Under the pieces are notes generated by a model. The model saw only the letters and a program-made list of their open reading frames with translations. It ran no database searches and was not told where the DNA came from. The position numbers and the translations under genes were made by a program. From Nitrosopumilus sp. (GTDB lineage Archaea; Thermoproteota; Nitrososphaeria; Nitrososphaerales; Nitrosopumilaceae), in contig OZ241981.1 in NCBI GenBank assembly GCA_965204345.1, positions 1,504,001 through 1,568,000 of the forward strand: a stretch of DNA of 64,000 nucleotides, in the 5' to 3' direction. Shown here in pieces: positions 32,680-50,350 of this stretch. The number at the start of each line of letters is the position of its first letter. Position 1 is the stretch's first letter.

Positions 32680-32810
32680 GAACCTTTGATAAACTAACTG
32701 CTGATCTTCATTTCTGGGAATTTCAATTGTTTTAGGTCAGGTTATCACACTTGTAAATGATTTTAGAATACACCTGTGGATTTTTATATTGAGTATATTT
32801 TCCCCAAAGT

Positions 32811-32978
32811 ATGGTCAAACTCAAGTGTAGTGATTATGGATTTGAGTGTGACTTTGTATCTGATGGGGAGCTGGAGACTGTGCTAGATGATTTTAGAAAT
32901 CATACAGAAGAAGAGCATGGAATAGATTACTCTAAAGAAGCAGTCATGCAGTTTATCCTAAGAAAACAGAAATTATAA
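32811..32978 (+). CDS. Small metal-binding protein (DUF1059-like), not in the ORF track
   Basis: Manual translation MVKLKCSDYGFECDFVSDGE...FRNHTEEEHGIDY...QKL* has the C-x-D-x-G-x2-C...H-x4-H pattern. Confidence 0.8.
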   Translation: MVKLKCSDYGFECDFVSDGELETVLDDFRNHTEEEHGIDYSKEAVMQFILRKQKL

Positions 32979-32983
32979 TAAAA

Positions 32984-34072
32984 CTAGGCATCCAGCTTTC
33001 TCATTCTAGCAGATAAAACCGGAAGTTCCTTGTCTATGATTTTTTCCACGGCAGGCACAAGTCCGGCCCTTGCCTTGACACTTTCCTCATAAAGCTCCGT
33101 AATTTGATCTCTGAATAATAACTTGATTCCGGGAAGCGCAGTTATGCCCTCATCAACAGTCCTTGGATCAGATAAATCCAGAATTAAGGTGCCTTTTTTC
33201 TTTTCTTCCATCACTAGCTTGATCCTATCAAATGTAATCAAAAAGTAATCAGAAGTAGTTGCAACAAAAATTATGTCATATTTATCAAATCCTGCCAATA
33301 CATCGTTAAAATCCACAGGAGTACCGCCAAGAATGGTTGTAAACCCGGTAGCACGCCCAATACTTCTGCTTGTGACATCAAAGGCAACCTCCTTTTTATT
33401 CAGAGTCTTTGCAAGCATTGCGGCAGGCTCACCGGTACCAATTACGAGCACCTTTTTCTTGGAATCCAGACCCGCCTTTTCATCAACAAGCTTTACTGCA
33501 ACATCACCCAAAGAAATCACATTTTTTGAGATTCCTGTGGTATCCCTCATTCGTATGGCAAGTCTGATCACACTGTCAAATAATTTATTGAGAATGTTTC
33601 CAGATACTCCTGCATCCTTTGCTTTTGCTAGGGATTGTACAATCTCATCAAAGACTTCCTGTTTGCCGACTACTACAGAATCCAGACCCGATGCCAATCG
33701 CAGCAAATGCAAATAGACGTCATCGCCTTTGTAGACTTCAAGCGTTTGATCAAAATGATCAATATCAATTTGCTCTAACGAGGATAAAGACACCCATGTG
33801 TCTTTTATTTTGTTTAACACAAGCGTTTTTCCCTCTTCCCTTCTAGCGTCTGGAGAGTCATCAGTTTCAACATTGCTAACAGTGAATATTTCGACCCTGC
33901 TTGCCGTCTGGATAATAATACATTCATCAACACCGGGAATTTTTTTGAATTCCTCGCATGCTGCATTGACATCCTTGAAGGTAAATTTGGAGAGTGTGTG
34001 CAGAGGAATATTTTTGAAAGTTACCCTGGCATTCATTACATCAAAAGATACGCGGCCCAAAACATCACCCAT
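32984..34072 (-). CDS. Glutamyl-tRNA reductase-like protein (HemA paralog lacking the catalytic Cys)
   Basis: HLLRLASGLDS, IGTGE and DLSDPRTVD match HemA, but the canonical TCNR motif reads TASR. Confidence 0.8.
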   Translation of the reverse strand: MGDVLGRVSFDVMNARVTFKNIPLHTLSKFTFKDVNAACEEFKKIPGVDECIIIQTASRVEIFTVSNVETDDSPDARREEGKTLVLNKIKDTWVSLSSLEQIDIDHFDQTLEVYKGDDVYLHLLRLASGLDSVVVGKQEVFDEIVQSLAKAKDAGVSGNILNKLFDSVIRLAIRMRDTTGISKNVISLGDVAVKLVDEKAGLDSKKKVLVIGTGEPAAMLAKTLNKKEVAFDVTSRSIGRATGFTTILGGTPVDFNDVLAGFDKYDIIFVATTSDYFLITFDRIKLVMEEKKKGTLILDLSDPRTVDEGITALPGIKLLFRDQITELYEESVKARAGLVPAVEKIIDKELPVLSARMRKLDA

Positions 34073-34878
34073 TATGCGCTAATTTTATCCCGTCCGCCCT
34101 TGGCTGTTCTAAAAACATTCATACCGATATAGAAATTCTCATGCAATGATTCCAAATAAGTAATCTCATTCTTTGTGTCCTGAATTTCTTTCTCAGTGGC
34201 ATCAGGATCGTCTTTTAATTGTTTTAATTTCTGCCTAGTCTCCTCTAAAAATGAGCTAACGCCACGTTCATAATTTGAAACGCCCTCAAATTCGGGACTA
34301 AGAACATTTTCTGGAACATAGGCAGGAGTCTGATCCTGCGGGATCTCTGCCTTTCTTGTAAGCGATTCTTGCTCATCTGCAGAAAGTATGGGTCTTGGAA
34401 ATCTGTCTTTTTTATCTAGGAAGAATTCCGGCTCGCCCATATCACGTCTGAAAATTTCTTCACCCTGTCTTTTGAAAGTATGATCAGACTTTTTGGTCGC
34501 ATCTGCCTTAACTTCAGCAGCAATTGCTTTGTATTCTTCCTCGGCTGCTGCCTCTGCCTGTTCTTTAGCTGCCTTTGCTTTTGCAAGGGCCTCTTTGACT
34601 GCACGTTCGGCCTCTTCTACGGCCTTGGCAGCGGCTTCTGCCTTTAATGTCGCATCCTCAGCCGCTTTTGCATCATCAGCTGTTTTTTCAGCCGCTTTTG
34701 CAGTTGCATCCTCAGCCGCTTTTGCATCTTCAGCTGCTTTTTCAGCCGCTTTTGCAGTTGCATCCTCAGCCGCTTTTGCATCCTCAGCCGCTTTTGCAGT
34801 TGCATCCTCAGCCGCTTTTTCAGAGGCTGAATCTTTAGTTGGTTTTACTTTAGACTCTTTTTTCTCTTCAGACAACAA
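34072..34878 (-). CDS. Ala/Glu/Lys-rich repeat protein (coiled-coil)
   Basis: N-terminal tandem AAEDATAK/AAEDAK/AAEK repeats followed by a unique C-terminal region. Confidence 0.75.
   Translation of the reverse strand: MLSEEKKESKVKPTKDSASEKAAEDATAKAAEDAKAAEDATAKAAEKAAEDAKAAEDATAKAAEKTADDAKAAEDATLKAEAAAKAVEEAERAVKEALAKAKAAKEQAEAAAEEEYKAIAAEVKADATKKSDHTFKRQGEEIFRRDMGEPEFFLDKKDRFPRPILSADEQESLTRKAEIPQDQTPAYVPENVLSPEFEGVSNYERGVSSFLEETRQKLKQLKDDPDATEKEIQDTKNEITYLESLHENFYIGMNVFRTAKGGRDKISA
34650..34822. repeat. Coding tandem repeats (CAGCCGCTTTTGCA / GCATCCTCAGCCGCTTTT units)
   Basis: Multiple near-identical 12-24 bp in-frame units. Confidence 0.85.
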
Positions 34879-35001
34879 ATTTCACTAAAATTCCCTGAAT
34901 TTTAATATTTTTGTGAGACAGTTAAATGACATCGTTTAGAGGATATGTTATGTTGTTCTGATCGGCTACAAAATGATTCTAAATATTGAAAATGAAAATA
35001 A

Positions 35002-35020
35002 TGGCACCCTCGGTGGGATT
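35002..35020 (-). repeat. att-like copy 1 of tRNA-Asp 3' end
   Basis: TGGCACCCTCGGTGGGATT vs TGGCGCCCTCGGCGGGATT at 50351-50369: 17/19. Confidence 0.75.
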
Positions 35021-35305
35021 CAATATTTTTGTTTAAATCCCCAAACTATGATTACGTATAAAAAAATTCATTTAAATCGATTTTTGTACTTTATCAATTC
35101 AGATCGTCATCATTAAATCTACTTCTACTCATTGCACTAAAGCCTGTAATTGGTCAAACTCCACTAAGTTTGGTTTTCATTTTGTGGATCTTTTACTTTG
35201 AATTATTGGATTTAGCGCAGAACTACGCTCTCATCACTGATTTTTACTTAAAAAGAAACCATTCATTTTCAATAAATACAATCTAAAAAGCATGTTTTGT
35301 TGGAA

Positions 35306-35590
35306 TTACACCTTTTCTTCACCTTTGGTTTTAGTAGCAACATCAATTGTTATGGGTTCTGCTGTAGATGTAACAATATCAACTGCATATGCACACAAAT
35401 CAACGGGTATGGGATTACTCACACTCCAAGTAATTTCACCAACAGTATTTATTTCAAAATTCAGATGTGGATAAGCATTTGCAAATATTTTTTGATATTA
35501 TGGAATTAATTCCATATTTGATTCGTCTATAGTAATTAATAATACAGAAGAATCCATTGAACCAACTAGCTGTTCCTCCAAGCTTTTCAT
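35306..35590 (-). pseudogene. Eroded ORF with an internal stop
   Basis: MKSLEEQLVG...MELIP*YQKIFANAYPHLNF...KGEEKV* reads in a single frame with one TAA. Confidence 0.35.
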
Positions 35591-35917
35591 ATTTAGGACA
35601 TGATGGTTCTTTTTTATTTTTCAATTTATTTTTACAATGTATACATCGATAAAAAGATCAAGTCTAATTTTCTAATCGAAGATTCTAAAGACTATGCAGC
35701 ATTTTGTAACTCTTTTTTGGAGAGATCATCAGAATTATCATTTTGAACACAACAATGAATAACATTTGTTTCTCTCTCACGTAAAACAACAATCTTAATT
35801 TTTGAGATTAATTTGGCATTATCCACTATGTCATCTATTTCATGATCAAATGGATTATCCTATTGATGAGGTGACAATTAAAAAGAATTAAGAGATATAG
35901 GATTTAAACAAAGCTGA

Positions 35918-35939
35918 TGGCACTCTCAGCGGAATTTGA
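35918..35939 (-). repeat. att-like copy 2 of tRNA-Asp 3' end
   Basis: TGGCACTCTCAGCGGAATTTGA: 18/22 to 50351-50372. The flank TAGGATTTAAACAAA also resembles TAGGAATTTAAACAAA next to the tRNA. Confidence 0.7.
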
Positions 35940-35957
35940 TGCTTTCAAGTCGGCCCT

Positions 35958-36059
35958 CTGGATGGATTGCACCTGAAATTTCTATTGGATTAGGGGGGGG
36001 GAAAACCCTGCATCGCCTTTCAAACCCTGGATGGATTGCACCTGAAATTTCTATTGGAT
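35958..36059. repeat. Perfect 33-bp direct repeat pair with a 36-bp spacer containing a G9 tract
   Basis: CTGGATGGATTGCACCTGAAATTTCTATTGGAT at 35958-35990 and 36027-36059. Confidence 0.9.
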
Positions 36060-36510
36060 AAATTGGTTTTTGACAAGCAAAACTAAGAAATTTTTGGATA
36101 TTTGATAATTTCTCTTGAAATTCAAAAATGATCTTGATTCGTTAAATTCCATACTCAATACTATTCTCTAACGAATTTCTTACTTTTTCTCCCCAATATA
36201 TTCAAAATGAGAGTCATTCCAAAGAAAATAGATAATGAGAATTTCTCACCAAGTTCAAATTTAATTTCTTTAGGTTGAATATGTTTGATATTAAAAACAT
36301 CTTTTTTTATTTGTTCAATACCTACATCAAATCCTGACAATCTTCCTACTCATCAAAATATGTTAGATGTGAATTAACCTAAGAGTAATTTTACCACAGC
36401 CCTCTGCATAGCATGGGTATTGTATGTAGAACTATCAGAAATAAAGTATAAGCATTACAAAGGCAGGAAAAATGTCCATAAGTTATCGCATCTCGGTGGT
36501 TATTGATGGC

Positions 36511-38362
36511 TTAGAATAGTCGTTTCTGACTTCTTTCTATATTTTTCATGCCTATTTTCTTTTTCCTTGATTTTTTGCTCTTTTTAGTTTTCTTGGATGC
36601 TTTTGAGACAATTTTTTCTTCCTTTGATTTATCCAGATTTAGTTTTGGTTGTTTACCCCATACCATCTTTTCTAGCTCTGCTCTCAATCTCATCGTCTCG
36701 ATTGAGACAGTTGTTACTTTTCGTAACAGATCTATCACATGTTCCTTATGATCTGCAAATTTGTACGTGTTGAATTTTTTCCTAATTTTGGGATCATCAC
36801 ACGATTTGGCGTGGATCATGTTTTTGGATTCTTTGTAGAATTCCAGAATCCATTCCAGTGCACACCTTGAGCTGAACTTGTATCTGAGGGCATCGTCTGG
36901 TATGTCTTCCAACATGGTCTGTTCATCTATTACTATTTTTGATAGTTTGTCCTCTTCCTTGGATTTCTTTAGACTTAATTTGACGCGGTTTTTCTTGGTT
37001 TTTTTGTCAGTTCGCTTTAGAGGATATGGTTTAGCACTTTCGAATCCAACATGAAGATCATAGAGTTTTTTGCCTATCCCAACCCATTCCATGAAATTTT
37101 CTGCCAAGGGTATTCTCGGGAATTTTCGTTGCAGATTGAACATATATTTTTCTGAATATTTTGGGTCATTGAATATGGCATATGTGTAATAGAATATGTC
37201 CTCATAAGTTATTTTACTACTTTTGTAATATGTTTGAAATAATTTTAAACCAAACTCTGTGATATTACTGTATCGTTTATTATTATCTCCATACATGTAA
37301 AGTGGAATACATTGTGCGCCAGGAATACAATCGTTTGAAGTTATTTTATTCGTTGCCAATGTTTGAAATAATATGTTAGTTTTTGGATTTACAAAACATA
37401 TTATCTTATTTGAATTTTGATCTGGAAATATCTGCGGAAATTTTCTTAACCAATCGATTATTATTTTGTCAAAGTATTGATATTTTACTACGAACGGTCT
37501 ATACATTGTCTTTTGAATATTTGTTTTGGTGTAAGATAAGCGATTACCGCGCAATAAATGATTTAATCCGCCTCTAGTCCATTTTATTGTTTTGTCTATC
37601 TCTTTCCCAATTTCTTTTACAGACTTTGTTGTATTTTCATATGTAACAATTTGACGATTATAAAATGTGAAAAAATATTTGATTTTATTTTCTAATCTTT
37701 TTTTATCAAAACTATATACCCAATCGTCTTTGGATGACATCGTTCCCATTGAAAGCAATTCAAACAGGGAATTCTCATCATACGCCACAGGAACCAACTC
37801 ATCAAAATCATTATTGGTCTGGTTAAGCCAATTAGCCTCCTTGTCAGGCATTATTTGCCTTAGTGATAGTGTAGAAAGCGAGTTGTCCGCAAGCCATTTG
37901 AGCTTCTCTTCTCTTTTCATATCGTCATCGACTTGTGTATAATAGATCTTAGATACCTTTTCACCAGTTTTAATAAAGAAGGAGATTGTGATGCCTATCT
38001 TCGCTTTACTTCCAAATACTTTTCCACCTTGTTTTCTCCAATTGGTTACATTTTGATTTCCTTTTAAATTTACAGTATAGATGTAATCAAATTCCTCATA
38101 TACTGCTCTCCTAAAACCGTCATCTGACTTTGCATCAAGAAAAGAATTATTGCTAATAAACACAACCATGCCATTTTTCTTGATACGCTCACTTGACCAC
38201 TTAAGAAACCGTTTGTACATGTCATACTTGGTGCTACCTTTTTTCACATTGGTATTGCTCCAAGTCTTTTCGATTTTTTGGTCAATGTCAGGATATTTGT
38301 CTGCAGGGTTAGCATCATTGAAGGATACCTGTATCGCGTTGTACGGCGGGTTTCCCAAGACC
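36511..38362 (-). CDS. Alternative (probably silent) 3' cassette of the Type ISP/IIG-like methyltransferase-specificity gene; 5'-truncated, starts at the GNPPY motif
   Basis: Intact 615-codon frame, inverted relative to 44550-46413 and a mosaic of identical and divergent blocks against it. Lacks the N-terminus and the SAM-binding motif I. Confidence 0.9.
38056..38362. repeat. Inverted repeat block 1, left arm (307 bp)
   Basis: Perfect reverse complement of 44550-44856 by manual alignment. Confidence 0.93.
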
Positions 38363-38366
38363 TGTC

Positions 38367-39530
38367 TTAATGGTGTGTGAGTATAGCCAGAATGCAGTCA
38401 ATCTGCTTCGGTGTAGCCTGATCTATCATCTCTTGTATTCGTTGCTTTTGCTCCAATTTGGGAATCTCACTAACTTGATCCAGATATTTCTCAGATCGTG
38501 CAAAAGCATTACTCATCTCGTTTACTAGAATTACAGGAAGTATTCCCTTGTTTGTAGTATATCTTGATTCTATGGTTCCTTTGTGTCCCATAAAGAAGGT
38601 ACGAAAATCATGTGCCATCTTTCCACGAGATTCTGCGATTAACAGTTGTGTATCAAAATATGCACGTAATACATAAGGCCTCCATGTAAATTTTGGTCTG
38701 AAAGTCTGACGTATTCTATCGCTTATGCGCTGTGTTGGAAGGAATGCCTTTTTTGATCTACGCCAAGTGTGTGTTGCTCGGTGGTCATTTGGAGATATTA
38801 CCGGTGAGTGTCCACACAGATCCTCCCCACATGCCAGCCTGTCGTTTAGATACGTCACAAGATGTTCTGTTGCAGATCTTGTGGAAAATGTAAAGTATTG
38901 ATGTCCAGCTTTTGACAGCTCACGTCTTACTATGATTTTATTTGGTAACTGATTGCACTTTACTTTCCCATGACATATTGTAATATCTGGAAGATCTCTT
39001 ATCTGTAAACCATCAGTTCCTCTATAGTTTCCAATTACTCCCGGTCTTAGACCTGATTTAGCCATCAGAGAAATCATTACAGATTCCCTCAAATCGGTTT
39101 TACGGTATATGTCTAACATCTCACTTGCATCTGGCACTCGTTCGTTCTGTAATGTAGGGGAAAAACCGAGTGATGCTACTCTTACTTTCCTTCTTACCAT
39201 TACGTCAAAATGTCTGAACCATGATTTTACGGTGTTTATATGATCTTCAATGTAACCGGGAGAATAATTGTGAGATTCCATCATTGTTATATGATCCTCC
39301 AGTAGATCGGTTGCAGTTCTTAGATCATTTACCGCTAGATCTGCAAGATGTGCAGGGTTAGTATGGTGCATCTCGCAGAACCTTCCCAGCTTTCGAAGAC
39401 GTCCTTCAGCTGTAAGCGGACTTCCACGTACCATGTTGTCATACCATCTTTTGACATCTTGATCCTGAAGCAGTTTAGATTTTTTGTGTTTGATTGAGCT
39501 AGCTTTTGTACATGATTTGTGAGTTGTCAT
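38367..39530 (-). CDS. Tyrosine recombinase/integrase (candidate invertase)
   Basis: Catalytic set: R (SGLRPG), K (LSKAG), YxxR in place of HxxR (YVLR), H (MGHKG), Y (SRYTT). Confidence 0.88.
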   Translation of the reverse strand: MTTHKSCTKASSIKHKKSKLLQDQDVKRWYDNMVRGSPLTAEGRLRKLGRFCEMHHTNPAHLADLAVNDLRTATDLLEDHITMMESHNYSPGYIEDHINTVKSWFRHFDVMVRRKVRVASLGFSPTLQNERVPDASEMLDIYRKTDLRESVMISLMAKSGLRPGVIGNYRGTDGLQIRDLPDITICHGKVKCNQLPNKIIVRRELSKAGHQYFTFSTRSATEHLVTYLNDRLACGEDLCGHSPVISPNDHRATHTWRRSKKAFLPTQRISDRIRQTFRPKFTWRPYVLRAYFDTQLLIAESRGKMAHDFRTFFMGHKGTIESRYTTNKGILPVILVNEMSNAFARSEKYLDQVSEIPKLEQKQRIQEMIDQATPKQIDCILAILTHH

Positions 39531-39880
39531 ACATATGGGTTTTAAACTAGCAACTTAATTCCGTTACCCAAGAAATTACTCTCTGTTTATAAAAAAACAT
39601 CACGCAACATGCATATTAGAATCATTATTGCTGTTTGATATCCACCCAAACCCATATGACCTCAGAATATCGTTTATCCCACACAAGATTTGTTTGTCTA
39701 TACACGACTATGCAAGAATTGAACTCCCAATAGGTGAACATATTAAGAATTATCCGCCAAAGAAAAAATAACCATGATAGTCAACAGAAGGCCAACGTCA
39801 TTCACATCACAAGGCATGCCAAAAAAATACAAAATATCTGTTGAAATGTTGAGATTAAAAAGGAGGCCATATAACCTAAA

Positions 39881-42800
39881 ATGAGTAATATGTCTGATGA
39901 AGAATGTCACATAGACAACGAAGACATAATAGACAATGAACATCACATACTCATCGATCATCTTCGTTCTGCCTTGCCAGAAACCAAGAGAGCAAGTATT
40001 GCTGTAGGTTATTTTTTCATCTCGGGATTTTCTGAAATTATGGACAGCTTAGCAAGAATAGAGAACAGTGAAGATCCAAACGACATGATACGCCTGCTAA
40101 TATCCCCCACCACAAACCGTGCTACAGCTGAGGCTCTACTTGCTAGCAATGAGAATTTGGATTCCGTTCGAAAAAATATATCAGTAAAAGAAACCACTGA
40201 TGAGCAGGAAGTAGGAATCATGAAAGACCAAGTGAAAAAAACTTTGGAATACATGCCTCAGACAACAAAAGATCAAGTAGCTGCCAAAAAGATCAGAGAA
40301 TTAATTCAAAAGAAAAAGCTACAGGTAAAGGTATACACCAGAGAACAACTACATGCAAAAGCATACATCTTTGAGCTTGATAACACCATAGCTCCACGGA
40401 TGGCAATAGTTGGATCCAGCAATCTTTCAATATCTGGAATAAAGGAACATACTGAATTAAATTTAAAGACCAAGAATGATGCAAATGTCAAAGGTCTGCT
40501 ACAGTGGTTTGATTGTCATTGGAATGATAAAAGTTGTAAGGAATTTACAGAAGAGATTGCAGATATTTTAGATCGATCATGGACAGGCAATGACAACACT
40601 CCTGAAGATGTATACGGCAAGGCATCCTTGTATGAACATGAAAAATTAATAGGTCATGGAGTTGACGGTGAGTCTAATGGAACTAAGGAACTGTTTGACT
40701 TTCAAAATAAGGCTGTCAGTGAGGCACTTACAAAACTCGATAATTACAATGGCGTGATCATTGCAGATGTGGTTGGCACAGGCAAGTCATATATTGGTAG
40801 TGAGATACTGAAGCGTCTCAAGGATTATCAACACGCAAAACCTTTGGTGATCTGTCCTCCACATCTAATTGAAATGTGGAGAAATCTTTTGCGCGATTTT
40901 GACATTTATGGAGAAGTAGAATCCAGATTTAAAATAGGTATGGATGATAATGTGTTACGTCGTTATACACATTGTGATGTGATACTGATAGATGAGAGCC
41001 ATAACTTTAGACATCACGATACCAATGCATATCAAGCACTGTCTGCATTTATGGAAGAAAAGACCGATGAGGCAAAAATGATAATGCTTACTGCCACACC
41101 AATATCCAACACCATACACGATCTTAAAAACCAGCTAAAGCTATTTCCTACAGAGGGTGTTGAAAGAATACCGCCTGTTGGATCTACCAAATTGGATGAG
41201 TACTTTAAAGGACTAGAAAGTGCAACCAGAGAGGTCAGTCCAGAAGGGGTAATCAAGATCCAAGAACTGTTAAAACATGTACTAATACGCAGAACTCGAA
41301 CCCAGATCATAAAAAAATACGCAAAACGTGATGGTAATAGATATTATATGGACATGAAAGAAGGACGTAAATATTTTCCAAAACGAAAGCTGCAAAATCC
41401 AGAGGAATATGATGCAGATAAGGTATACAACAATGCCTTTGCACAGATAGAAAATGCAATAGAATCACTTCATCTAGCAAGATATGTTCCAGGAAAATAT
41501 ATCAAAGATGAATTTCTCACAGATACAAGATATGCTGATCTTGTAAACATCTCAAGACCAATGTCTGGCATAGTCAGAACATCCCTACTGAAACGAATGG
41601 AAAGCAGCCTAAAGGCCTTTGATACTAGTATCAACAACTACCAGAAAGGATACAGACTATTTAAAAAACAATTAGAGAAGGGTAGAATTCCAATTGGAAA
41701 GGAATTCAAGGATGTAATATACAAAAAGATGGATGATGATTATGATGACAAAGATTATGATGAAGATATTGCAAACATCAAATCAAAATATGATATCAAG
41801 GCATTTGATGTGGATTTGTGGAAAAAAGAGATTGATGAGGATCTTAGCAAGTTTGCTGAAATTGTAGGCCATCTACGAGGTGAGGAATTTACAAAACGAG
41901 ATGACAAACTTCACAAGCTCCGAGATCTGATCAAAGACAAGGATGAAAAGATCTTAATATTCTCAGAATCAGCAGAAACTGTCAAATACATTTATGATTA
42001 CCTGAAAGATGAGCTCCCAAAAGATAGAAAGATAGAAAAGATTGACTCCAAGGTGGATCAAAAGACAAAAACATCGCTAGTGGAGAGATTTGATCCCAAG
42101 AACAACAATGCGGCTGATAAAATACCCGAAAACAAAGAGATTGACATACTGGTAAGCACTGATGTTTTATCAGAAGGAGTAAATCTGCATGCTGGCAAAA
42201 CCGTAATCAACTATGACTTTCACTGGAATCCGGTACGACTCATTCAAAGAGTCGGAAGACTGGACAGGATTGGTTCAGAGCATCCGATAATCGATATTTT
42301 CAATTTTCTACCTACAACAAAAATTGACATAGCACTATCATTACAGGAAAGAGTATCTGAAAAAATTAGAACAATTCGTAGAATAATTGGTTCTGACCAA
42401 CAAATATTGGTGGCAACAGAAGACATTGATGAAAAAGGCATATCGCCAATATACAATCCTGATGACAATGATGACATATCAGATCCAGAGATACAGAGTG
42501 GCATTTTCGACATAGAGGAAACAGATTCTGAAAAACATGCAGATGATATAAGCCAAGATAAGGAGAAGAAAAATTATTTTGACAATTTACCGTTTGGAAT
42601 AAGGGCAGTAACTGGTTCAGACAAGCTCATAATAGCATGCGAGGCAGAAGGATCAATTTTGGATCAAGACGGAAGGGGTAATCTCGGTACAGCATTTAGA
42701 AAGCATTATGAAATAACAAAAAATGGAAATCTGAATTCCATAACTCCATCATCTTTTCTCAAACAGATTGGTAACAACATCAACCATACAGGAAAATGTG

Positions 42801-43252
42801 ATGACTTGCAGTACAATGATTTAGTAGGCATTGCGTGGAAACGGTTCGTACGGGATATGAAAAATGAATCAGTCCGAAATACAGAGCGTAAACATCAGAT
42901 ATTTTTTGATAAAAAATTGACACGTATTGCAACACATGATAGGTCTCTTGCAGAACGTGCAAAGAAACTAAAACCGTTTGTGACTGCTGAAAAGTCCGCC
43001 ATGCTAGCATCACGAGCTACACTTGCAGAACGTGCAAAGAAACTAAAACCGTTTGTGACATCTAGAATGAGGCACACACATCAGCCTTATAGAAGCCTGT
43101 CTGAGTTGCACAGACAGATTGACAAAGACGTTTCAATGAATGATGCTACGATAATTGATGAACTTGAAAAAATCCAAAAAAAATACGGCCACATCAAATA
43201 TACAAAGACCATCAAAAAGCCCAGAATATTATACAGTATGATGGTGAGCTAA
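39881..43252 (+). CDS. PLD-family nuclease + SF2 (SNF2-like) helicase, putative restriction/motor subunit
   Basis: AVGYF, HAKAYIFE...GSSNLS (PLD HKD-like), Walker A VGTGKS, DESH, LTATP, SEGVNL and QRVGRLDR motifs. Confidence 0.9.
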   Translation: MSNMSDEECHIDNEDIIDNEHHILIDHLRSALPETKRASIAVGYFFISGFSEIMDSLARIENSEDPNDMIRLLISPTTNRATAEALLASNENLDSVRKNISVKETTDEQEVGIMKDQVKKTLEYMPQTTKDQVAAKKIRELIQKKKLQVKVYTREQLHAKAYIFELDNTIAPRMAIVGSSNLSISGIKEHTELNLKTKNDANVKGLLQWFDCHWNDKSCKEFTEEIADILDRSWTGNDNTPEDVYGKASLYEHEKLIGHGVDGESNGTKELFDFQNKAVSEALTKLDNYNGVIIADVVGTGKSYIGSEILKRLKDYQHAKPLVICPPHLIEMWRNLLRDFDIYGEVESRFKIGMDDNVLRRYTHCDVILIDESHNFRHHDTNAYQALSAFMEEKTDEAKMIMLTATPISNTIHDLKNQLKLFPTEGVERIPPVGSTKLDEYFKGLESATREVSPEGVIKIQELLKHVLIRRTRTQIIKKYAKRDGNRYYMDMKEGRKYFPKRKLQNPEEYDADKVYNNAFAQIENAIESLHLARYVPGKYIKDEFLTDTRYADLVNISRPMSGIVRTSLLKRMESSLKAFDTSINNYQKGYRLFKKQLEKGRIPIGKEFKDVIYKKMDDDYDDKDYDEDIANIKSKYDIKAFDVDLWKKEIDEDLSKFAEIVGHLRGEEFTKRDDKLHKLRDLIKDKDEKILIFSESAETVKYIYDYLKDELPKDRKIEKIDSKVDQKTKTSLVERFDPKNNNAADKIPENKEIDILVSTDVLSEGVNLHAGKTVINYDFHWNPVRLIQRVGRLDRIGSEHPIIDIFNFLPTTKIDIALSLQERVSEKIRTIRRIIGSDQQILVATEDIDEKGISPIYNPDDNDDISDPEIQSGIFDIEETDSEKHADDISQDKEKKNYFDNLPFGIRAVTGSDKLIIACEAEGSILDQDGRGNLGTAFRKHYEITKNGNLNSITPSSFLKQIGNNINHTGKCDDLQYNDLVGIAWKRFVRDMKNESVRNTERKHQIFFDKKLTRIATHDRSLAERAKKLKPFVTAEKSAMLASRATLAERAKKLKPFVTSRMRHTHQPYRSLSELHRQIDKDVSMNDATIIDELEKIQKKYGHIKYTKTIKKPRILYSMMVS
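42947..43059 (+). repeat. In-frame 38-bp direct repeat with a 37-bp spacer in the helicase C-terminus
   Basis: CTTGCAGAACGTGCAAAGAAACTAAAACCGTTTGTGAC at 42947-42984 and 43022-43059; LAERAKKLKPFVT appears twice. Confidence 0.92.
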
Positions 43253-46200
43253 TGAGTTTTGATGAGCACATAAAACCACTGCAAAGAGATTTTCAGAATG
43301 TAGGGTACACTACAATCCGGGAACCGTGGGATACCAGCAGACTTTGCAACGAAGACGCTGTGATAGATGTGGAAATAATTGCAAGGAAGGATTATTTCAA
43401 TATTTTGTATCTTGAGGCAGAATCAAATTGGAGGGGATTATCCAGTCAAGTAGCCCAAAAAAACACAAATCCCTGTATGGTGATTACCCGATACGGCGAT
43501 ACACATCACATCTTTACTACAATGAGAGATCACGGAACTTTGCATGCAAAGCCTCGACATGTCATATTGAGGACAGAGATTAAAAAAGAGTTGATTGTCA
43601 AATTCATTCACGAGATTAAGGTTAACGTAAATGATGAACACATAGAAGTTGACACAAAAGTACAAAATGCATTTGATAAATTCACTGCATACCAACAGGC
43701 CATTGATGAATTTGCTGAGAATCTTGAAAAAGCGATAAAAAATACACGTGCTATAATAGTCAAGTCATCAAAAGACAGCAAAGACTATGATGTAGAAGCT
43801 GCAAAATTTCTAGACATGTGTCGCAAGGTAATTAGCGATAAGCTAGAACCAAACGACATTACAGAAATGTTATTGCAACATGTCCTAACATACAGAATTT
43901 TTGCCCTGATATATGATGAACACAAGCTTCATACTACAAATGCAGTTGCACGATCTCTCGAAGGATTGATCAACATACTTGGCATGGATGTAAAAGAGAT
44001 TAATGCAAACTATAGTACAATAGAGCTTGTCGCAGAGTCTATCACTGATGCTACAGAAAAACAGGATTTTCTAAAGCAGGTATATGAAACATTTTATGCA
44101 AAGTATGATCCAAAAAACAAGGACAGTTGGGGAATAGCATACACGCCATCAGAAGTAGTAGACTTTATGGTAAAGTCTACAGAACAATTACTTGAGAAAC
44201 ATTTTGGAAGAAATCTCTCTGATGACAATGTCACAATACTTGATCCTGCAACTGGAACCGGAACATTTGTGACATCCGTTTTGAGACATACAAAACCGAC
44301 ATCGCTTGAATCAAAATACAACAATGATATTTTTGCAAATGACATATCTATACTTGCGTATTACATCGCAGCTCTAAACATAGAGAATACCTATCAGGAA
44401 ATAACAGGCAAGATTAAAGAATTTGAGAATATTTGTTGGATGGATACTCTTACAAGCGGTACAAAAGATTTTGGTAAATTAAGCTCATATTTTGACGGAC
44501 AAGACAACGTAAAGCGCATATCAAGGCAACAAACAAAGGACATATGTGTGGTCTTGGGAAACCCGCCGTACAACGCGATACAGGTATCCTTCAATGATGC
44601 TAACCCTGCAGACAAATATCCTGACATTGACCAAAAAATCGAAAAGACTTGGAGCAATACCAATGTGAAAAAAGGTAGCACCAAGTATGACATGTACAAA
44701 CGGTTTCTTAAGTGGTCAAGTGAGCGTATCAAGAAAAATGGCATGGTTGTGTTTATTAGCAATAATTCTTTTCTTGATGCAAAGTCAGATGACGGTTTTA
44801 GGAGAGCAGTATATGAGGAATTTGATTACATCTATACTGTAAATTTAAAAGGAAATGCAAGAACATCTGGTGAGCTACGACGAGAACAAGCAGGCAATGT
44901 ATTTCGAGATACTATCAAGGTAGGAATCACCATATCGTTCTTCGTTAAAACTAGTGAGAATAAATCAGAGATTCATTATACTGAGATAGATAACTACCTA
45001 AAAAGCGAAGAGAAGCTCAAATGGCTTGCGGACAACTCGCTTTCTACACTATCACTAAGGCAAATAATGCCTGACAAGGAGGCTAATTGGCTTAACCAGA
45101 CCAATAATGATTTTGATGAGTTGGTTCCTGTGGTAAATGATGTCAACTCTGTATTTAAGAAGTTTTCATACGGTTCTCAATCAAATCGAGATGAATGGGT
45201 ATATGATTTTGATAAAAAAAGATTAGAAAATAAAATCAAATATTTTTCCACATTTTATAATCGTCAAATTGTTACATATGAAAATACAACAAAGTCTGTA
45301 AAAGAAATTGGGAAAGAGGTAGACAAAACAATAAAATGGACTAGAGGTGGATTAAATCATTTATTGCGCGGTAATCGCTTATCTTACACCAAAACAAATA
45401 TTCAAAAGACAATGTATAGGCCGTTCGTAGTAAAATATCAATACTTTGACAAAATAATAATCGAGTGGTTAAGAAAATTTCCTAGTATATTCCAAGATTC
45501 CAAGCCAAACATGTTAATTGGATTTCCAAATCCCAAGACTAACATACCATTCCATACATTAGTAGCTGATAAAATTATGGACACAGGCTCTGTTCTTGAT
45601 ACACAATGTATTCCACTTTACATGTATGGAGATAATAACAAACGATACAGTAATATCACAGAGTTTGGTCTAAAATTATTTCAAACATATTACAAAAGTA
45701 GCAAAATAACTTATGAGGACATATTCTATTACACATATGCCATATTCAATGACCCAAAATATTCAGAAAAATATATGTTCAATCTGCAACGAAAATTCCC
45801 GAGAATGCCATTGGCAGAAAATTTCATGGAATGGGTTGGGATAGGTAAAAAACTCTATGATCTTCATGTGGGGTTCGAAAGTGCTAAACCATATCCCCTA
45901 AAGCGAATCGACAAAAAAACCAACAAAAATAACGTCAAATTAAGCCTAAAGAAATCAAAAATAATGATCGATAATCAGACAATTCTTGAAGATATTCCAA
46001 ATCAGGCATTACAATACAAGTTTAGCTCAAAATGTGCACTAGAATGGATTTTGGAATTCTATAAGGAATCAAAAAATCAAATATCAGACAAGTCATGTGA
46101 TGATCCCAAAATTAGGAAAAAATTCAACACATACAAGTTTGCTGATTACAAGGAACATGTGATAGATCTGTTACGAAGAGTAACAACCGTCTCAGTCGAA

Positions 46201-46413
46201 ACTATGAGATTGAGAACAGAATTAGAAAATATGCCTTGGGGCAAACAACCAAAACTAAATCTGGATAAATCAAAAGGAGAACAAACTATCTCAAAAGTAT
46301 TCAAGAAAACTAAAAAGAGCAAAAAAGTAGCAAAAAAAACCCGCAAGAAAACAAAACAGGCAGCCGGTATGCAAGAAACACTTGACGACCATGGTCAAAA
46401 AAGGCTGCTCTAA
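43252..46413 (+). CDS. N6-adenine DNA methyltransferase with Type ISP-like C-terminal specificity domain (complete allele)
   Basis: YTPSEVVDFMV, ILDPATGTGTF (motif I) and GNPPY (motif IV). NLKGN, RDEWVY, YRPF, IFYYTYAIF...Y...L...PR.P and ALEWI are typical of Type ISP C-terminal domains. Coupled to the helicase through TAATG. Confidence 0.9.
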   Translation: MSFDEHIKPLQRDFQNVGYTTIREPWDTSRLCNEDAVIDVEIIARKDYFNILYLEAESNWRGLSSQVAQKNTNPCMVITRYGDTHHIFTTMRDHGTLHAKPRHVILRTEIKKELIVKFIHEIKVNVNDEHIEVDTKVQNAFDKFTAYQQAIDEFAENLEKAIKNTRAIIVKSSKDSKDYDVEAAKFLDMCRKVISDKLEPNDITEMLLQHVLTYRIFALIYDEHKLHTTNAVARSLEGLINILGMDVKEINANYSTIELVAESITDATEKQDFLKQVYETFYAKYDPKNKDSWGIAYTPSEVVDFMVKSTEQLLEKHFGRNLSDDNVTILDPATGTGTFVTSVLRHTKPTSLESKYNNDIFANDISILAYYIAALNIENTYQEITGKIKEFENICWMDTLTSGTKDFGKLSSYFDGQDNVKRISRQQTKDICVVLGNPPYNAIQVSFNDANPADKYPDIDQKIEKTWSNTNVKKGSTKYDMYKRFLKWSSERIKKNGMVVFISNNSFLDAKSDDGFRRAVYEEFDYIYTVNLKGNARTSGELRREQAGNVFRDTIKVGITISFFVKTSENKSEIHYTEIDNYLKSEEKLKWLADNSLSTLSLRQIMPDKEANWLNQTNNDFDELVPVVNDVNSVFKKFSYGSQSNRDEWVYDFDKKRLENKIKYFSTFYNRQIVTYENTTKSVKEIGKEVDKTIKWTRGGLNHLLRGNRLSYTKTNIQKTMYRPFVVKYQYFDKIIIEWLRKFPSIFQDSKPNMLIGFPNPKTNIPFHTLVADKIMDTGSVLDTQCIPLYMYGDNNKRYSNITEFGLKLFQTYYKSSKITYEDIFYYTYAIFNDPKYSEKYMFNLQRKFPRMPLAENFMEWVGIGKKLYDLHVGFESAKPYPLKRIDKKTNKNNVKLSLKKSKIMIDNQTILEDIPNQALQYKFSSKCALEWILEFYKESKNQISDKSCDDPKIRKKFNTYKFADYKEHVIDLLRRVTTVSVETMRLRTELENMPWGKQPKLNLDKSKGEQTISKVFKKTKKSKKVAKKTRKKTKQAAGMQETLDDHGQKRLL
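44550..44856. repeat. Inverted repeat block 1, right arm (307 bp)
   Basis: Perfect reverse complement of 38056-38362. Confidence 0.93.
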
Positions 46414-47049
46414 CCTAGAATCTCTGTACTAAGCCATCAGAATATGACTTGCTATTTTTGAGGAATTTTGGAGAAAATTTAGATCCCCGCCTAGATTTAA
46501 TGGTGAAAATTTCATATACTGTTTTCTGAAGTGTCCTATGATGTACTAATGTTCAAATTTTTGTAGAAAGACATGACGATTAAGGACTTTCAGAGGTAAA
46601 ACCATCAAATGAAATCATCAGAGAAAAAAATAGTTATCAGTAATTCTGCTAGCAGGGGCAAATGGCAGGCGTTTTCTAATTGCAGTTTTTTCTTATCTCA
46701 CAAAACCGCTAATCTGCCTTTTTCTTTATGCGTAATGATTTTTTTATTTTATGCGTAAAAACCCTCTTTACCTCAATCCGTCGATTTCTATATGCGTAAC
46801 AAGGGAGGTAACGATTTTCCGTAAAGTCAAGAAAGTTTACGATATGTTACCGTTAACTTGTAATTTTATTTGTTATACTTTCACACCAATCAAAATTAAT
46901 GATATTCCCAAGTGATCTCTTTAGTACTATTGCATCATTCCCAAAAAAAGAATCTTTGGACAGATTACAACCAGTAGGGTATGCCATGCAATAGAAAGAT
47001 GGGTCAAGAGCCTCCGATCCCCTGAAAAGATAACCTAATATGCCCCATC

Positions 47050-47400
47050 ATAGTATGCAAAGTTATCAGTACCAAACATTCTCAGGCTGTTCATTACAGG
47101 CGATAATATGTTATATTTTCACTTTAGCCAAAGAGAATTTTATATCATCAAGATTTGCAGGAATACAACAGATTCAAGCATAATGAAACTCAATCTTGTT
47201 TCTGATAGGAATATCTGTAAGATTGTTGAAAAATTAGGTTTTACAAAAATTCATCAATAAGAAGTCATGTGAGATATGTTCATTCTGATGGTCGTAAGAC
47301 AGTTGTTCTGGTGTATGGTAATGAAATGTTAGGTAGAGGTTTGATTAATGAAATTTCAAGGACAAGACTGGTAGAAGGAACGATTTATTCTAAGTTGGAT
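47050..47400 (+). pseudogene. Degenerate hicB-hicA toxin-antitoxin pair
   Basis: From ATG 47183: MKLNLVSDRNICKIVEKLGFTKIHQ*, then frameshifted SHVRYVHSDGRKTVV...GRGLINEI (HicA pattern). The upstream remnant ends FAGIQQIQA* and overlaps through TAATG (HicB-like). Confidence 0.7.
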
Positions 47401-47894
47401 TATCTGATTGAATACCCATTATTTACAGATTCAAAATGGAGAAATCTTTCACAAATAGTAGATTGTGTAGCTTTTGTATCAGGAAGAAATTCAGGAGAAA
47501 TACAATATTAATACACACCACAAATTGGGACAGATATTATGACATGATAGAAAAGAAATTCCGCAAAGTCAATGGAACTCATCATAGTTATAGATTAAAG
47601 ATTTTTCCAAAATAGAAAGGTTAGGGGAGAAACTCCGCATCACCTTCCCAATGTGACCTAGGTCATTCGCTAATTAAACTAGCAATTGCTGCTTTAAATA
47701 ATTATATTATATGGTAATTACCAACAAAGTAATTTATTTAGATTAACAAACTCGGCATGGAGATTAGTTTGAAAAATCTTATGATGTACATATATTCAAA
47801 TCCCATTTAGGAGATTAAACAATTCAAATTATCATTATGAGTAAAATTTGAACCTAAAAACGATGTAGGAAGCATGGATATGAACAAAAATTAA

Positions 47895-47914
47895 TGGGCC
47901 CTCGTTAGGATTTG
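47895..47914 (-). repeat. att-like copy 3 of tRNA-Asp 3' end
   Basis: TGG-GCCCTCGTTAGGATTTG vs TGGCGCCCTCGGCGGGATTTG (17/21). Preceded by AACAAAAATTAA, like AACAAAATTAG at the tRNA. Confidence 0.6.
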
Positions 47915-48164
47915 TCAAATCTGTCTACTCTTCTCATTTATTTATGGCTAGAAAATTCAAAATTACGTTATAGATCAAAAGCTAGTTCGTAAGAGTTTAA
48001 AGAAATATCAAAGTATCATATTGTATGTATACGCAGGGTAAAACACACACCGTTATGATAGAACAAGACAAAGACGGTTTGCAATATTGTCCATTATGAG
48101 GGACACGTTGCATTGCAAAGAACAGCAACAGCATAAGAAAAATTACAGCAATATTTTATATCAG

Positions 48165-48998
48165 CTAGACTTTGATTAGCGTTGATTTTTTATTCTGTAT
48201 TTTAGTGATGCAGAAATTGGCAAATTCTTTTTCGGTATATTCCACTTCCTTTAGGACACTGTTGACCTTGGTGACTGTTGGGTATTGATCATATGTCCTG
48301 CCTTTGATTGTACGTCCTCCAGACTTTGGTCTGATTCCTCCCCATTGTTTGAAAAAAACACAAACCTTTTGCTTTTTGCATTGTTTTATGATATCTAGAA
48401 TCCACTTTTCTTCTACTTTGCGGTAACCTGGGCCACTTTCTCCTCCAATGATAACCCAGTCAATGTTTTTCAGATTTAGTTGGCCAACTGAACCAATCAA
48501 CGGCTCTATGCTCAAAAATCTTGTATGACATTTTACTTTCCGTAAATCATCAACTCTCCATTTGTAGTCTCGGTTTTCGACACTCACTCCCATCCAAATA
48601 TGTGGAGGTATTTTTTCTCCAAAGTAATCTCTAAACAGTTTTGAGAATTCAAGCATGACATGAGAACGTTTTGTCAGGACCTGATAGAAATGATGATCTG
48701 CTCGTAGCATGGTGTGAAAACAGCTGCCAATGTATTCCATTCTGGATTTTTCATGAAACAAATCCGACATGCTGTTTACAAAAACTTTCTTGCTTTTCTT
48801 CCAAGTCAAAGGTAATTCCAAGTCATCAGGCTGTTCTGTAAACTCAAAATTATTTTTGTATTTTTTTACTCCCATTGCTTTTAGTCTTTTTGAAAGTTTT
48901 TCAGCATAACAATTTGCACAACCGGGAGATATCTTGGTGCACCCTGTTGTAGGATTCCACGTTGCCTCTGTCCATTCAATGGCGGAATTGTTTGCCAT
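48165..48998 (-). CDS. DUF5131 / phage Gp37-Gp68 family three-Cys-motif protein (radical SAM-like)
   Basis: IEWTEATWNPTTGCTKISPGCANCYAE, FVNSMSDLFH, WVIIGGESG and FFKQWGG motifs. Confidence 0.92.
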   Translation of the reverse strand: MANNSAIEWTEATWNPTTGCTKISPGCANCYAEKLSKRLKAMGVKKYKNNFEFTEQPDDLELPLTWKKSKKVFVNSMSDLFHEKSRMEYIGSCFHTMLRADHHFYQVLTKRSHVMLEFSKLFRDYFGEKIPPHIWMGVSVENRDYKWRVDDLRKVKCHTRFLSIEPLIGSVGQLNLKNIDWVIIGGESGPGYRKVEEKWILDIIKQCKKQKVCVFFKQWGGIRPKSGGRTIKGRTYDQYPTVTKVNSVLKEVEYTEKEFANFCITKIQNKKSTLIKV

Positions 48999-49139
48999 AT
49001 TTTTATCAGATCTATACTATTACTAAAATATTCATTTTGTAGATTGCGTTAAATTTTGACTATGGGTGCACGTATGTTCCACTGCGAAAATAAATAGCTC
49101 TAAAAAAATTAATATCATTGAATCATCACAAGGTATTAC

Positions 49140-50102
49140 TTGCCGAACAAATTTTCTATAACTGACAGCATCAAGCGAGCAAGAACAAGTTTTTCACACA
49201 TTTACAATGACGGTTTGGAAAAATCCATCGGAGATATCTGGTCCATCAAGAAATTTCTCTTGCTTGACTATTACATGCCTGTTTTCATATCTATCGTAAG
49301 CAACAATAATTTCAAGGAATTTTATTATGCAGATCCTTTTTGCGGTTCGGGAAAGTTTGCAGATTTTAAGGATCCTATCTTGAAAAAAGAATCTTTTCCA
49401 GGTTCTGCGCTAATTGGAGCACTAAATGCATCATGTTTGGGATATACCGGCTGTATTTTCTCTGATACTAATTCGGCTTATGTTGATTCATTTAATGCTC
49501 GCTTGGAGAAAAGTAAGATTATTCCAAATAATATTTCTTACAAGGCAGACACTATGGACTTTGAAAATACTGTAAAGAAAATCTTGGCGATGAGAAAATA
49601 TCAGGTTGCAATTCTTGTTTTGATAGACCCTGCTGCATATGTTCCGATTAAGTGGCATCTTATGGAGAAGTTATCTAAAGAGATTGGCGTAGACATTATC
49701 CTTAATTTTTACACTCACAGAATAGCACAGAATGTTTCTGCTACAAAGAAAAACAAGAGTGTAGAAAAGAATCTTGATGAGTTTTTTGGCGATGATTCTT
49801 GGAAGAAAATCAGAGACGGTCCAAGGTCCTCTTCTTTGGGAGAAAAATTGCTAGCACTTTACTTGGAAAAGATTCGTGTAGCATCTAAAAAAAATGTAAT
49901 AGATATAGGGGTGTACAAAGAGGGATCTCAGAAACTGTATGATTTGATTGTAATTACAAGAAGTCATGCAGGTGCAAAAGTAATAACAGATGCAAAAGAA
50001 GTGATGAGAAACGCTACTACTGAAGCTATAAAGCGTGAGCTCAAGACTCAGATTACGTCACAGACAAGACTCTTTTCTAATTCATCAAAAGACTTTGCGT
50101 AA
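49140..50102 (+). CDS. tcmP: Three-Cys-motif partner protein (TcmP-like, methyltransferase fold)
   Basis: WSIKK..LL.YY, YADPFCGSG, GSAL, LIDP and FFG..SW motifs; adjacent to DUF5131, its usual partner. Confidence 0.8.
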   Translation: MPNKFSITDSIKRARTSFSHIYNDGLEKSIGDIWSIKKFLLLDYYMPVFISIVSNNNFKEFYYADPFCGSGKFADFKDPILKKESFPGSALIGALNASCLGYTGCIFSDTNSAYVDSFNARLEKSKIIPNNISYKADTMDFENTVKKILAMRKYQVAILVLIDPAAYVPIKWHLMEKLSKEIGVDIILNFYTHRIAQNVSATKKNKSVEKNLDEFFGDDSWKKIRDGPRSSSLGEKLLALYLEKIRVASKKNVIDIGVYKEGSQKLYDLIVITRSHAGAKVITDAKEVMRNATTEAIKRELKTQITSQTRLFSNSSKDFA

Positions 50103-50350
50103 AAAGATATGATTGTGGATAAGAGAAGATCTGCAAAAGAACAGCAAAAAAGGGATTCTAGTAAATTTTGATGATCTGATCACCGGAAATTAACAGCAAA
50201 TTGCAAGAGATGATTTTCTTAAAAATTACCAAGTTTTAATCATCAAAAAATCTCAAAGTACAACTCAGAGATTACTAAATATGTGAATTATGACATAGAT
50301 CACCAAAATTTACCAGAACCGGATTGAGCTAGGAATTTAAACAAAATTAG

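Follow-up and report, generated by a model that had tools for sequence, protein, structure and literature searches.

Programmed inversions that alter genes are well documented in bacteria and have hardly been explored in archaea. In the closest described cases, those of Milman, Yelin and Kishony (2023; PMC9881135), programmed inversions were confirmed by long reads in 11 Type II restriction-modification (R-M) loci, in a scan that, as its authors state, covered bacteria only. The loci discussed there include Cj0031-like genes with an adjacent PLD + SNF helicase gene (Bacteroides ovatus CP083813.1, 5322008-5329826; CP044495.1), the PglX gene of BREX and DrmMI of DISARM. Here we describe a locus of a similar kind in an archaeon. 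In a stretch of 64,000 nucleotides (nt) from Nitrosopumilus sp. (assembly GCA_965204345.1, contig OZ241981.1, positions 1,504,001 to 1,568,000; hereafter the window, whose own numbering is used below), a two-gene R-M system is accompanied by a tyrosine recombinase gene and by a silent, inverted copy (the cassette) of the 3' part of its methyltransferase-specificity gene. The locus is probably a working inversion shufflon, that is, a system whose R-M specificity can be switched by inversion.

Reports on archaea are few. An inverton survey of 42 archaeal long-read sets, none of them from the phylum of the window, listed 12 putative invertons, all in Euryarchaeota or Crenarchaeota; the portion of that preprint consulted names no R-M gene among them, and for archaea the preprint refers to a computational study on Type I systems (PMC10028968). 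A paired-end survey, as summarized in its text, found zero inversions in 6 archaeal data sets (PMC5903667). Our own full-text literature searches, judged by title and the start of the abstract and not covering the supplementary locus lists of Milman et al. and of the inverton preprint, returned no archaeal case of this kind. Within the scope of these searches, the mechanism is established in bacteria and an archaeal example has not previously been described. Little is known of virus defence and epigenetics in ammonia-oxidising archaea, and the locus provides a concrete case there that can be put to the test.

The silent cassette corresponds to the last 1.86 kb of the methyltransferase gene, inverted, lacking a promoter, truncated at its 5' end and placed 6.2 kb away (Table 1). 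It has 615 codons with no internal stop and is 83% identical to residues 435-1013 of the methyltransferase over 586 aligned positions; residues 1-434, which by Pfam hold the coupler and the S-adenosylmethionine (SAM)-binding part, are missing. The two copies share a 307-nt inverted repeat, IR-A, whose arms are 100% complementary. Between the arms lie 6187 nt that carry the recombinase gene, the divergent intergenic region, the gene for the PLD+SNF2 partner protein and the 5' half of the methyltransferase gene. The stop codon of the recombinase (38369-38367) is followed by only four bases (38366-38363), after which comes IR-A, its first base being the third base of the Val codon in the VLGNPPY motif. 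A second perfect inverted repeat, IR-B, spans 127 nt, and the rest of the cassette is covered by additional inverted blocks at 81-94%. When positions 38363-44549 were flipped by script, the result was an uninterrupted hybrid of 1049 residues that ends at the cassette's own stop at 36511. An earlier reading of the window from its letters alone (the original prediction) had outlined this arrangement, and our analysis reproduced it: the cassette as an intact inverted paralog of 44550-46413, its start at the VLGNPPY codons 4 bp past the recombinase stop with the N-terminal ~430 residues and their SAM-binding part missing, the ~6.2-kb segment bracketed by perfect 307-bp repeats, and the in-frame fusion of the 5' half to the other C-terminus.

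A base-by-base comparison of the expressed gene with the cassette, from which block limits were set and protein identities computed block by block, revealed that the two copies are an alternation of identical and strongly diverged blocks, the latter named V1 to V4. V1 is flanked on both sides by perfect repeats, IR-A and IR-B. Recombination between the arms of IR-A would flip the 6.2-kb segment, and with it the recombinase gene, the helicase gene, the presumed promoters of both and the 5' half of the methyltransferase gene, exchanging everything from V1 through the tail; the 5' half would thereby be joined in frame to the other set of V1-V4. Recombination between the arms of IR-B would exchange all that is distal to V1, from V2 through the tail, and the two inversions combined would swap V1 alone. 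In either orientation, the silent copy would sit directly downstream of the recombinase gene. Having two perfect repeats, the locus could therefore give rise to at least four expressed alleles.

The same gene order is found in another genus of the same family, in genome G080 (locus L001). The perfect repeat of G080 is 308-311 nt long and ends at the same codon (LKGN), and additional perfect blocks of 138, 191, 164, 120 and 217 nt are present. In a four-row alignment, the window and G080 differ at many positions of IR-A, yet the two arms of each genome are identical at these positions. Further lineages come from public runs. Contigs of four runs from three studies (X1, X2, X5 and X7) were compared with positions 36400-44549 of the window, a stretch that holds one arm of IR-A. 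In X1 and X2, IR-A is a single unitig of 307 nt, exactly 38056-38362, whose depth is roughly double that of its flanks and which shows 9 differences to the window; the arms are therefore identical in those populations too. As far as the sequences tell, concerted evolution of the repeat arms is seen in four lineages (the window, G080, X1 and X2) while the repeat itself diverges between lineages.

The most direct sign of exchange comes from a sister strain, in which a full-length protein (P0122, 1051 residues), a cassette-only protein (P0227, 617 residues) and a recombinase (P0001, 98% identical) come from contigs of equal size, 164739. V1 of P0122 is 97% identical to the window's cassette and 44% to the window's gene, and V1 of P0227 shows the converse, with 96% identity to the gene and 46% to the cassette. 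No swap is seen in V2, V3, V4 or the tail, which have 88-98% identity to the matching window copy vs 28-75% to the other. A swap of the whole cassette was considered and rejected, since the C-terminal half of P0122 is 91% identical to the window's gene vs 87% to the cassette and V1 alone is swapped. A reciprocal swap of V1 is exactly the product that would be expected of two nested inversions, and by this comparison the expressed and the silent copies have exchanged in nature. Residues 653-737 of P0227 match neither of the window copies (43-44%), and therefore cassette repertoires also vary between strains. More widely, 21 of the 120 best cassette homologues are cassette-only open reading frames (ORFs), 6 of which begin at NPPY. 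Eight values of contig size are common to a full-length and a cassette-only protein, and six to a cassette-only protein and a recombinase homologue.

Table 1. Features of the locus, in positions of the window.
Feature	Position	Strand	Description
Silent 3' cassette	36511-38362 (ORF 36511-38358, 615 residues)	-	Intact inverted copy of residues 435-1053; starts at NPPY motif
IR-A left arm	38056-38362		307 nt, 100% identical to right arm; ~2x-depth unitig in four runs
IR-A right arm	44550-44856		Encodes methyltransferase residues 435-535 (NPPY to LKGN)
IR-B left arm	37785-37911		127 nt, 100%
IR-B right arm	45007-45133		Encodes residues 586-627
Recombinase	38367-39530	-	387 residues; inside invertible segment; stop 4 nt from IR-A
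Divergent intergenic region, recombinase / PLD+SNF2 gene	39531-39880		Both promoters presumed here
PLD (HKD) nuclease + SNF2 helicase gene	39881-43252	+	1123 residues; one-base overlap with methyltransferase start
Expressed methyltransferase-specificity gene	43252-46413	+	1053 residues; nuclease-like N-terminal domain, coupler/connector, gamma-class N6-adenine methyltransferase, target recognition domain
V1	Gene 44857-45006 (residues 536-585); cassette 37912-38055	+	44% protein identity between copies
V2	Gene 45134-45206 (residues 628-652); cassette 37712-37784	+	44% protein identity
C2	Gene 45207-45464; cassette 37454-37711	+	98% nt identity per 60-column window; perfect runs of 41, 70, 28, 71 and 44 nt
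V3	Gene 45465-45601 (residues 738-783); cassette 37317-37453	+	50% protein identity
C3	Gene 45602-45845; cassette 37073-37316	+	97-98% nt identity; longest perfect run 104 nt
V4	Gene ~45930-46088 (residues ~893-945); cassette ~36809-36988, with 7-codon insertion	+	55-73% nt identity
Tail	Gene 46329-46413	+	28% protein identity between copies

The G080 locus carries further elements. A DDE (IS240-type) transposase gene stands between its recombinase and helicase genes, and a third copy of the cassette, in direct orientation and 74-78% identical in nucleotides, begins at cassette residue 153 behind a DDE_Tnp_4 fragment at its 5' side, having been truncated by an insertion sequence (IS); the coordinates of these features in L001 are 1078-2424, 3444-5045 and 8402-9745. 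In genome G061, two open frames of 581 residues on the same strand, 23 kb apart (L003, 4452-5975; L004, 8875-10395), hold the recognition half only (28% identity), and the methyltransferase 5' half and the helicase are absent nearby.

The public runs also contain strain variation at the locus. A minor T>C variant at position 38332, within IR-A and 31 nt from its inner edge, accounts for 65 of 342 in X5 and 55 of 295 in X7, or 19% of the summed repeat depth; C is the sole base there in X1 and X2, and the 4.6-kb inner contig has no variant. In X1, the abundant strain (depth ~63-88) diverges across the helicase core, at 40376-42204, with a joint that skips 1827 nt and with loose ends, and a minor strain (depth 14) matches the window almost exactly in this region.

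What would be switched is the recognition part of the methyltransferase. In the 1053-residue protein Pfam detects ISP_coupler, N6_Mtase/Eco57I and Type_ISP_C, that is, a coupler, a gamma-class N6-adenine methyltransferase and a recognition domain, and in the cassette only the C-terminal part of Eco57I and Type_ISP_C. The nearest solved relative is the Type IIL enzyme DrdV (7LO5; E 2.6e-191, residues 146-991 aligned with DrdV 149-1024), and two enzymes of Type ISP, LlaGI and LlaBIII, match at E ~1e-115. Going by these matches, the methyltransferase is nearer to Type IIL DrdV than to the Type ISP enzymes. The original prediction had called it ISP/IIG-like. Outside the window, a second relative, 35% identical to the cassette, lies at 1375721-1377292 of contig C1 of the same genome (G000), in an open frame of 1592 residues, the size of a single-chain Type ISP enzyme.

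The N-terminal 155 residues of the methyltransferase are modelled with a pLDDT of 88. A Foldseek search with this domain model gave no match at E <= 0.001. In an exhaustive structural scan of 48,161 chains, BpuSI ranked first with its region 24-184 (Z 6.6, rmsd 4.7, 129 aligned), followed by DrdV with region 27-142 (Z 6.0, rmsd 3.6, 103 aligned), both with Z < 8. These matches of the model are modest, yet both are to the corresponding domain of a homologous enzyme. In the presumed ExK motif, the Lys is not conserved among homologues, and position 57 in the window is Glu. It is possible that the domain is inactive as a nuclease.

A nuclease of a different kind is encoded by the adjoining gene, whose product Pfam assigns to PLDc_2, RE_NgoFVII, SNF2-rel_dom and Helicase_C, in line with the PLD-helicase of the original prediction; its best PADLOC model is 'HKD+Snf2' (1.3e-70). 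The pairing of this PLD+SNF2 protein with the methyltransferase is kept in G080, G089, G574 and L020. By analogy with Type ISP and Type IIL enzymes, the two proteins presumably act together. The system would work like a Type ISP enzyme split into two polypeptides and equipped with a different nuclease, and fits neither Type ISP nor stand-alone Type IIL. The 3' end of the PLD+SNF2 gene contains a perfect direct repeat of 38 nt at a spacing of 75 nt (42947-43059), by which the peptide LAERAKKLKPFVT is doubled; the contigs of X5, X7 and X1 break at this repeat.

The structure of DrdV allows the variable blocks to be placed relative to DNA. As described in the DrdV preprint (bioRxiv 10.1101/2021.01.06.425610), F562 and K567 stack on or replace the flipped adenine, D803 and K807 make base contacts, and K486 and K488 are contacts as well. 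The DrdV counterpart of V1 is 547-596, and F562/K567 align with F551/K556, which lie in V1 and are retained in both copies among differing neighbours. D803/K807 align with G779/D783 in V3, where the cassette has D/G. K486/K488 align with G475/T477 in IR-A, constant within the genome and different in G080. By the DrdV alignment alone, the variable blocks would be DNA-recognition elements, and a change of specificity by block swapping is plausible. The alleles would be expected to methylate and restrict different motifs, and switching is predicted to occur within populations. The benefit may lie in an escape-proof virus defence for a sponge-associated ammonia oxidiser. IR-B, the V1-V4 alternation, the layout in G080, the identical arms in X1 and X2, the V1 swap in the sister strain and the DrdV contacts in V1 and V3 had all been missed by the original prediction.

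The recombinase was modelled by AlphaFold with a mean pLDDT of 85, and the best Foldseek matches of the model in the PDB are XerA (5hxy/4a8e), the integron integrase IntI (2a3v) and Cre (E 3e-6 to 1e-4, probability 1.0, TM 0.3-0.55). With two domains, of which the C-terminal one is a catalytic domain of the integrase/Cre/Xer type, the protein is by its modelled fold a tyrosine recombinase, as had been predicted. R162, K207, Y286, R289, H316 and Y324 are invariant in 51 homologues and stand in the expected order; going by this order and by the known motifs, these six are candidates for the catalytic residues R...K...(H/Y)xxR...H/W...Y. The closest ESM Atlas clusters carry PF00589, which we regard as a lead only, and sequence matches in Pfam and the PDB to Rbsn, IcmW and TAL-effector repeats were dismissed as spurious. 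There are 1961 homologues, the few source-named ones among them being site-specific integrases or hypothetical proteins of Nitrososphaerota, and the relatives in genome contigs come from Nitrosopumilaceae, Nitrosopumilus and Cenarchaeum. Judging by these homologues, the recombinase belongs to an archaeal integrase family that is unmatched by any Pfam model. The wider family looks multi-copy or repeat-adjacent: the complete genome OZ243974.1 contains at least 5 copies (L009, L023, L025, L026 and L031), and in the metagenome loci L079-L155 many genes of the family start ~100-400 nt from a contig end.

Several findings weigh against the interpretation of the locus as a switch operated by this recombinase. 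The ten public runs listed are all stored as contigs; those of the four runs compared all end at the repeats, as they cannot span 307 nt, and neither orientation can be counted. The design is rare: among 301 genomes sampled from the family, 401 from the order and 401 from the phylum, it is present in G000 and G080 only. Plain versions, with no cassette, occur in G089, G574 and L020, and the order and phylum searches added only plain G574 and G483. Relatives occur in 166 records of the plasmid collection, none of which reaches 60% identity; identities in the 15 listed records are no higher than 37%, and the annotation is for the most part that of an ordinary Type ISP enzyme. (In one of these plasmid matches, H15, the Type ISP gene has as its neighbour a 'three-Cys-motif partner protein TcmP'.) DNA was read for G080 only, and outside it co-location is taken from equal contig size, a proxy. 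In Pfam and the PDB, sequence searches at E up to 10 match the recombinase itself to neither Phage_integrase (PF00589) nor a solved recombinase, also when a profile of 51 sequences is used. Among 71 loci in genome contigs that contain a recombinase relative, a single one (L020) has the helicase and methyltransferase adjacent, and it has neither cassette nor repeat; none of the 71 has a cassette, and L013, L038 and L039 have weak or partial helicase/methyltransferase matches nearby. In the best 80 of 197 metagenome loci with a recombinase relative, methyltransferase, helicase and repeats of at least 60 nt are all absent. Other relatives, L008 and L009 (64-65% identity) and L020 (55%), stand beside tRNA-Lys, like element integrases. 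Finally, IR-A and IR-B of the window have no common word of at least 9 nt, those of G080 have only 9-10-mers at chance level, and a search for palindromic arms separated by 5-10 nt found none conserved in the window and G080 alike; these results give no support to site-specific action at both repeats.

The foremost alternative to a recombinase-driven switch is that the cassettes exchange through general homologous recombination or gene conversion, the recombinase being a leftover integrase of the island with no role in switching. The length of the repeats (307 and 127 nt, and up to 308 in G080), which have no core word in common, would suit host recombination, as would a recombinase family that is mostly unlinked to the system and found beside tRNA-Lys in relatives. 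In L008 (11296-11541) and L009 (11270-11621) the end of the recombinase gene and a tRNA-Lys(ttt)/tRNA-Asp(gtc) pair are 120-140 nt apart, and in L020 tRNA-Lys (12413-12486) is 1.4 kb away. The window has the same tRNA pair at 50351-50599, ~4 kb past the methyltransferase gene and at the edge of a stretch of lower GC (0.32-0.38 across 34000-52000 vs 0.40-0.44 in the flanks), which also fits this alternative. Stretches with no long ORFs lie on either side of the locus (34900-36500, ~1.6 kb; 46413-48165, ~1.75 kb), and the cassette protein is found at E <= 1e-30 in none of 37 same-genus genomes sampled. The stretch 34000-52000 looks like an acquired island, and the tRNA neighbourhood suggests that the window recombinase descended from tRNA-targeting element integrases. 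The lineage as a whole looks like one of element integrases, of which one branch is linked to the shufflon.

Other observations speak against a merely leftover integrase. The 3' end of the recombinase gene abuts IR-A in two genera, 4 nt off in the window and overlapping it in G080. Recombinase homologues (64-98% identity) share equal contig sizes with methyltransferase or cassette homologues in eight contigs. An att-like repeat of the tRNA-Asp/tRNA-Lys region, searched for in 30000-48200, gave matches of 11-14 nt, none at a plausible island border; the only match below E 0.39 has E 0.025, and the longest, of 14 nt, lies away from the island's other side. In the bacterial loci, moreover, a recombinase gene adjoining the inversion targets is noted in the account of Milman et al. 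(PMC9881135). On balance we consider exchange by host recombination alone unlikely.

We infer that the adjacent recombinase catalyses the inversions, and this is the weakest link in the argument. It may act at IR-A only, with host recombination doing the rest, or it may act on identity as described for IntpTN3. IntpTN3 of Thermococcus nautili is described as a tyrosine integrase that acts on identical segments down to 104 bp in length and brings about inversions of the chromosome (PMC8371274). It resembles what is proposed for the window in being an archaeal tyrosine recombinase and, in that description, in inverting DNA between repeats that are long and identical and have no evident core site. 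Homology-dependent activity of the window recombinase is an idea only, likened to IntpTN3 by the description of activity and not by homology. With this in mind, one may speculate that an element integrase of an archaea-specific tyrosine-recombinase lineage was domesticated as an identity-guided invertase, for which each near-identical block would be a crossover point, so that up to 2^4 or more specificities could arise from one cassette. Such an enzyme would explain why the exchange blocks are long perfect repeats with no shared motif. We hold this extension to be doubtful. If true, it would amount to a combinatorial, heritable and reversible switch of methylome and virus defence in an ammonia-oxidising sponge symbiont, and to the first demonstration in Nitrososphaerota of programmed inversions that alter genes.

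According to another alternative, the cassette is itself translated, from a TTG or GTG start within it and by way of transcription that runs on from the recombinase gene, and gives a free specificity-domain protein that modulates the enzyme instead of being a silent donor only. The cassette is on the same strand as the recombinase, 4 nt past its stop, with a possible TTG start, and gene predictors call such ORFs on many contigs. However, the product would start part-way through the catalytic domain, from motif IV on, and would lack the SAM-binding part, and in distant relatives the cassettes start 38-168 residues upstream of NPPY or downstream of it, which fits repeat boundaries better than a conserved start. 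This reading appears very unlikely and would be compatible with a shufflon.

Also very unlikely is that an old duplication left the cassette behind as a static relic, a pseudogene fragment in decay with no present inversion. The assembly does show one orientation only, and the IS-truncated third copy in G080 indicates that such loci decay. A decaying fragment is hard to reconcile, however, with 615 stop-free codons, with perfect identity over 307 and 127 nt beside blocks of 44-50% protein identity, with arms that are identical also in G080, X1 and X2 although the repeat diverges between these lineages, and with the reciprocal V1 exchange in the sister strain.

That the duplicate is an assembly artefact, for which no supporting point was found, has a negligible probability, given that, in four runs of three studies, IR-A forms a unitig of its own with roughly double the depth of the inner segment (X5 298 vs 140-150; X7 257 vs 119-147; X1 149 vs 76-88; X2 7.2 vs ~3), that X5 and X7 have contigs for both V1 versions, each at roughly single-copy depth, and that the independent genome G080 has the same design. 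Two checks named with the original prediction thus have their answers: the doubled depth indicates that the duplicate is real, and the comparison across relatives yielded the G080 layout and the sister-strain exchange. Its attribution of the DNA to an ammonia-oxidising archaeon also stands, as the genome carries amoA and the relatives are Nitrosopumilaceae.

Two other genes adjoin the locus. At 34072-34878 lies an ORF of 268 residues, rich in Ala, Glu and Lys, with degenerate repeats spaced 12-54 nt (AKAAEDA-like units) and no Pfam match, and downstream of the locus, at 48165-48998, is a DUF5131 gene (E 8.5e-88).

Beyond its host, the locus offers a compact system in which to study an archaeal recombinase family that is missed by current domain libraries. 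Loci of this type break short-read assemblies and run the risk of being mis-annotated as a truncated methylase beside an integrase.

The system combines features of several known ones. DrdV (PDB 7LO5/7LVV) has a connector, methyltransferase and recognition domain homologous to those of the window protein. However, DrdV is a stand-alone enzyme whose own nuclease domain does the cutting, whereas the window gene is in an operon with that of the PLD+SNF2 protein. Type ISP enzymes likewise have a homologous coupler, methyltransferase and C-terminal specificity domain, and in them, too, a helicase-nuclease works with the methyltransferase. They are, however, single polypeptides with an Mrr-type (PD-(D/E)xK) nuclease, in contrast to the two polypeptides, the PLD/HKD nuclease and the SNF2-like motor of the window.

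The closest overall likeness is to the Cj0031-like locus of Bacteroides ovatus. As in the window, the methyltransferase-specificity gene is described there as lying directly downstream of a PLD + SNF helicase gene, with inverted repeats inside the methyltransferase gene and alternative 3' parts (PMC9881135). The original prediction knew of no described example built on a PLD-helicase and an ISP-like methyltransferase, and the B. ovatus case in Milman et al. (2023; PMC9881135) is one. The likeness is one of descriptions, as given in that article; the B. ovatus locus is bacterial and confirmed by long reads, whereas that of the window is archaeal and supported by comparison. A further difference is that the recombinase of the window belongs to an archaeal integrase family with no Pfam match.

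Type I hsdS shufflons (Streptococcus pneumoniae SpnD39III, Mycoplasma pulmonis and Bacteroides) and BREX PglX of Lacticaseibacillus rhamnosus, in the accounts consulted (PMC7672463, PMC9881135), resemble the window in having silent, inverted partial copies, several repeat pairs that lead to combinatorial alleles, an adjacent tyrosine recombinase, and variable parts that are target recognition elements. What is switched in them, according to the same accounts, is a separate S subunit or the middle part of PglX; in the window, it would be the 3' 60% of a fused methyltransferase-specificity gene. Unlike in hsdS and PglX, the flipped segment of the window holds the whole 5' part of the operon together with the recombinase.

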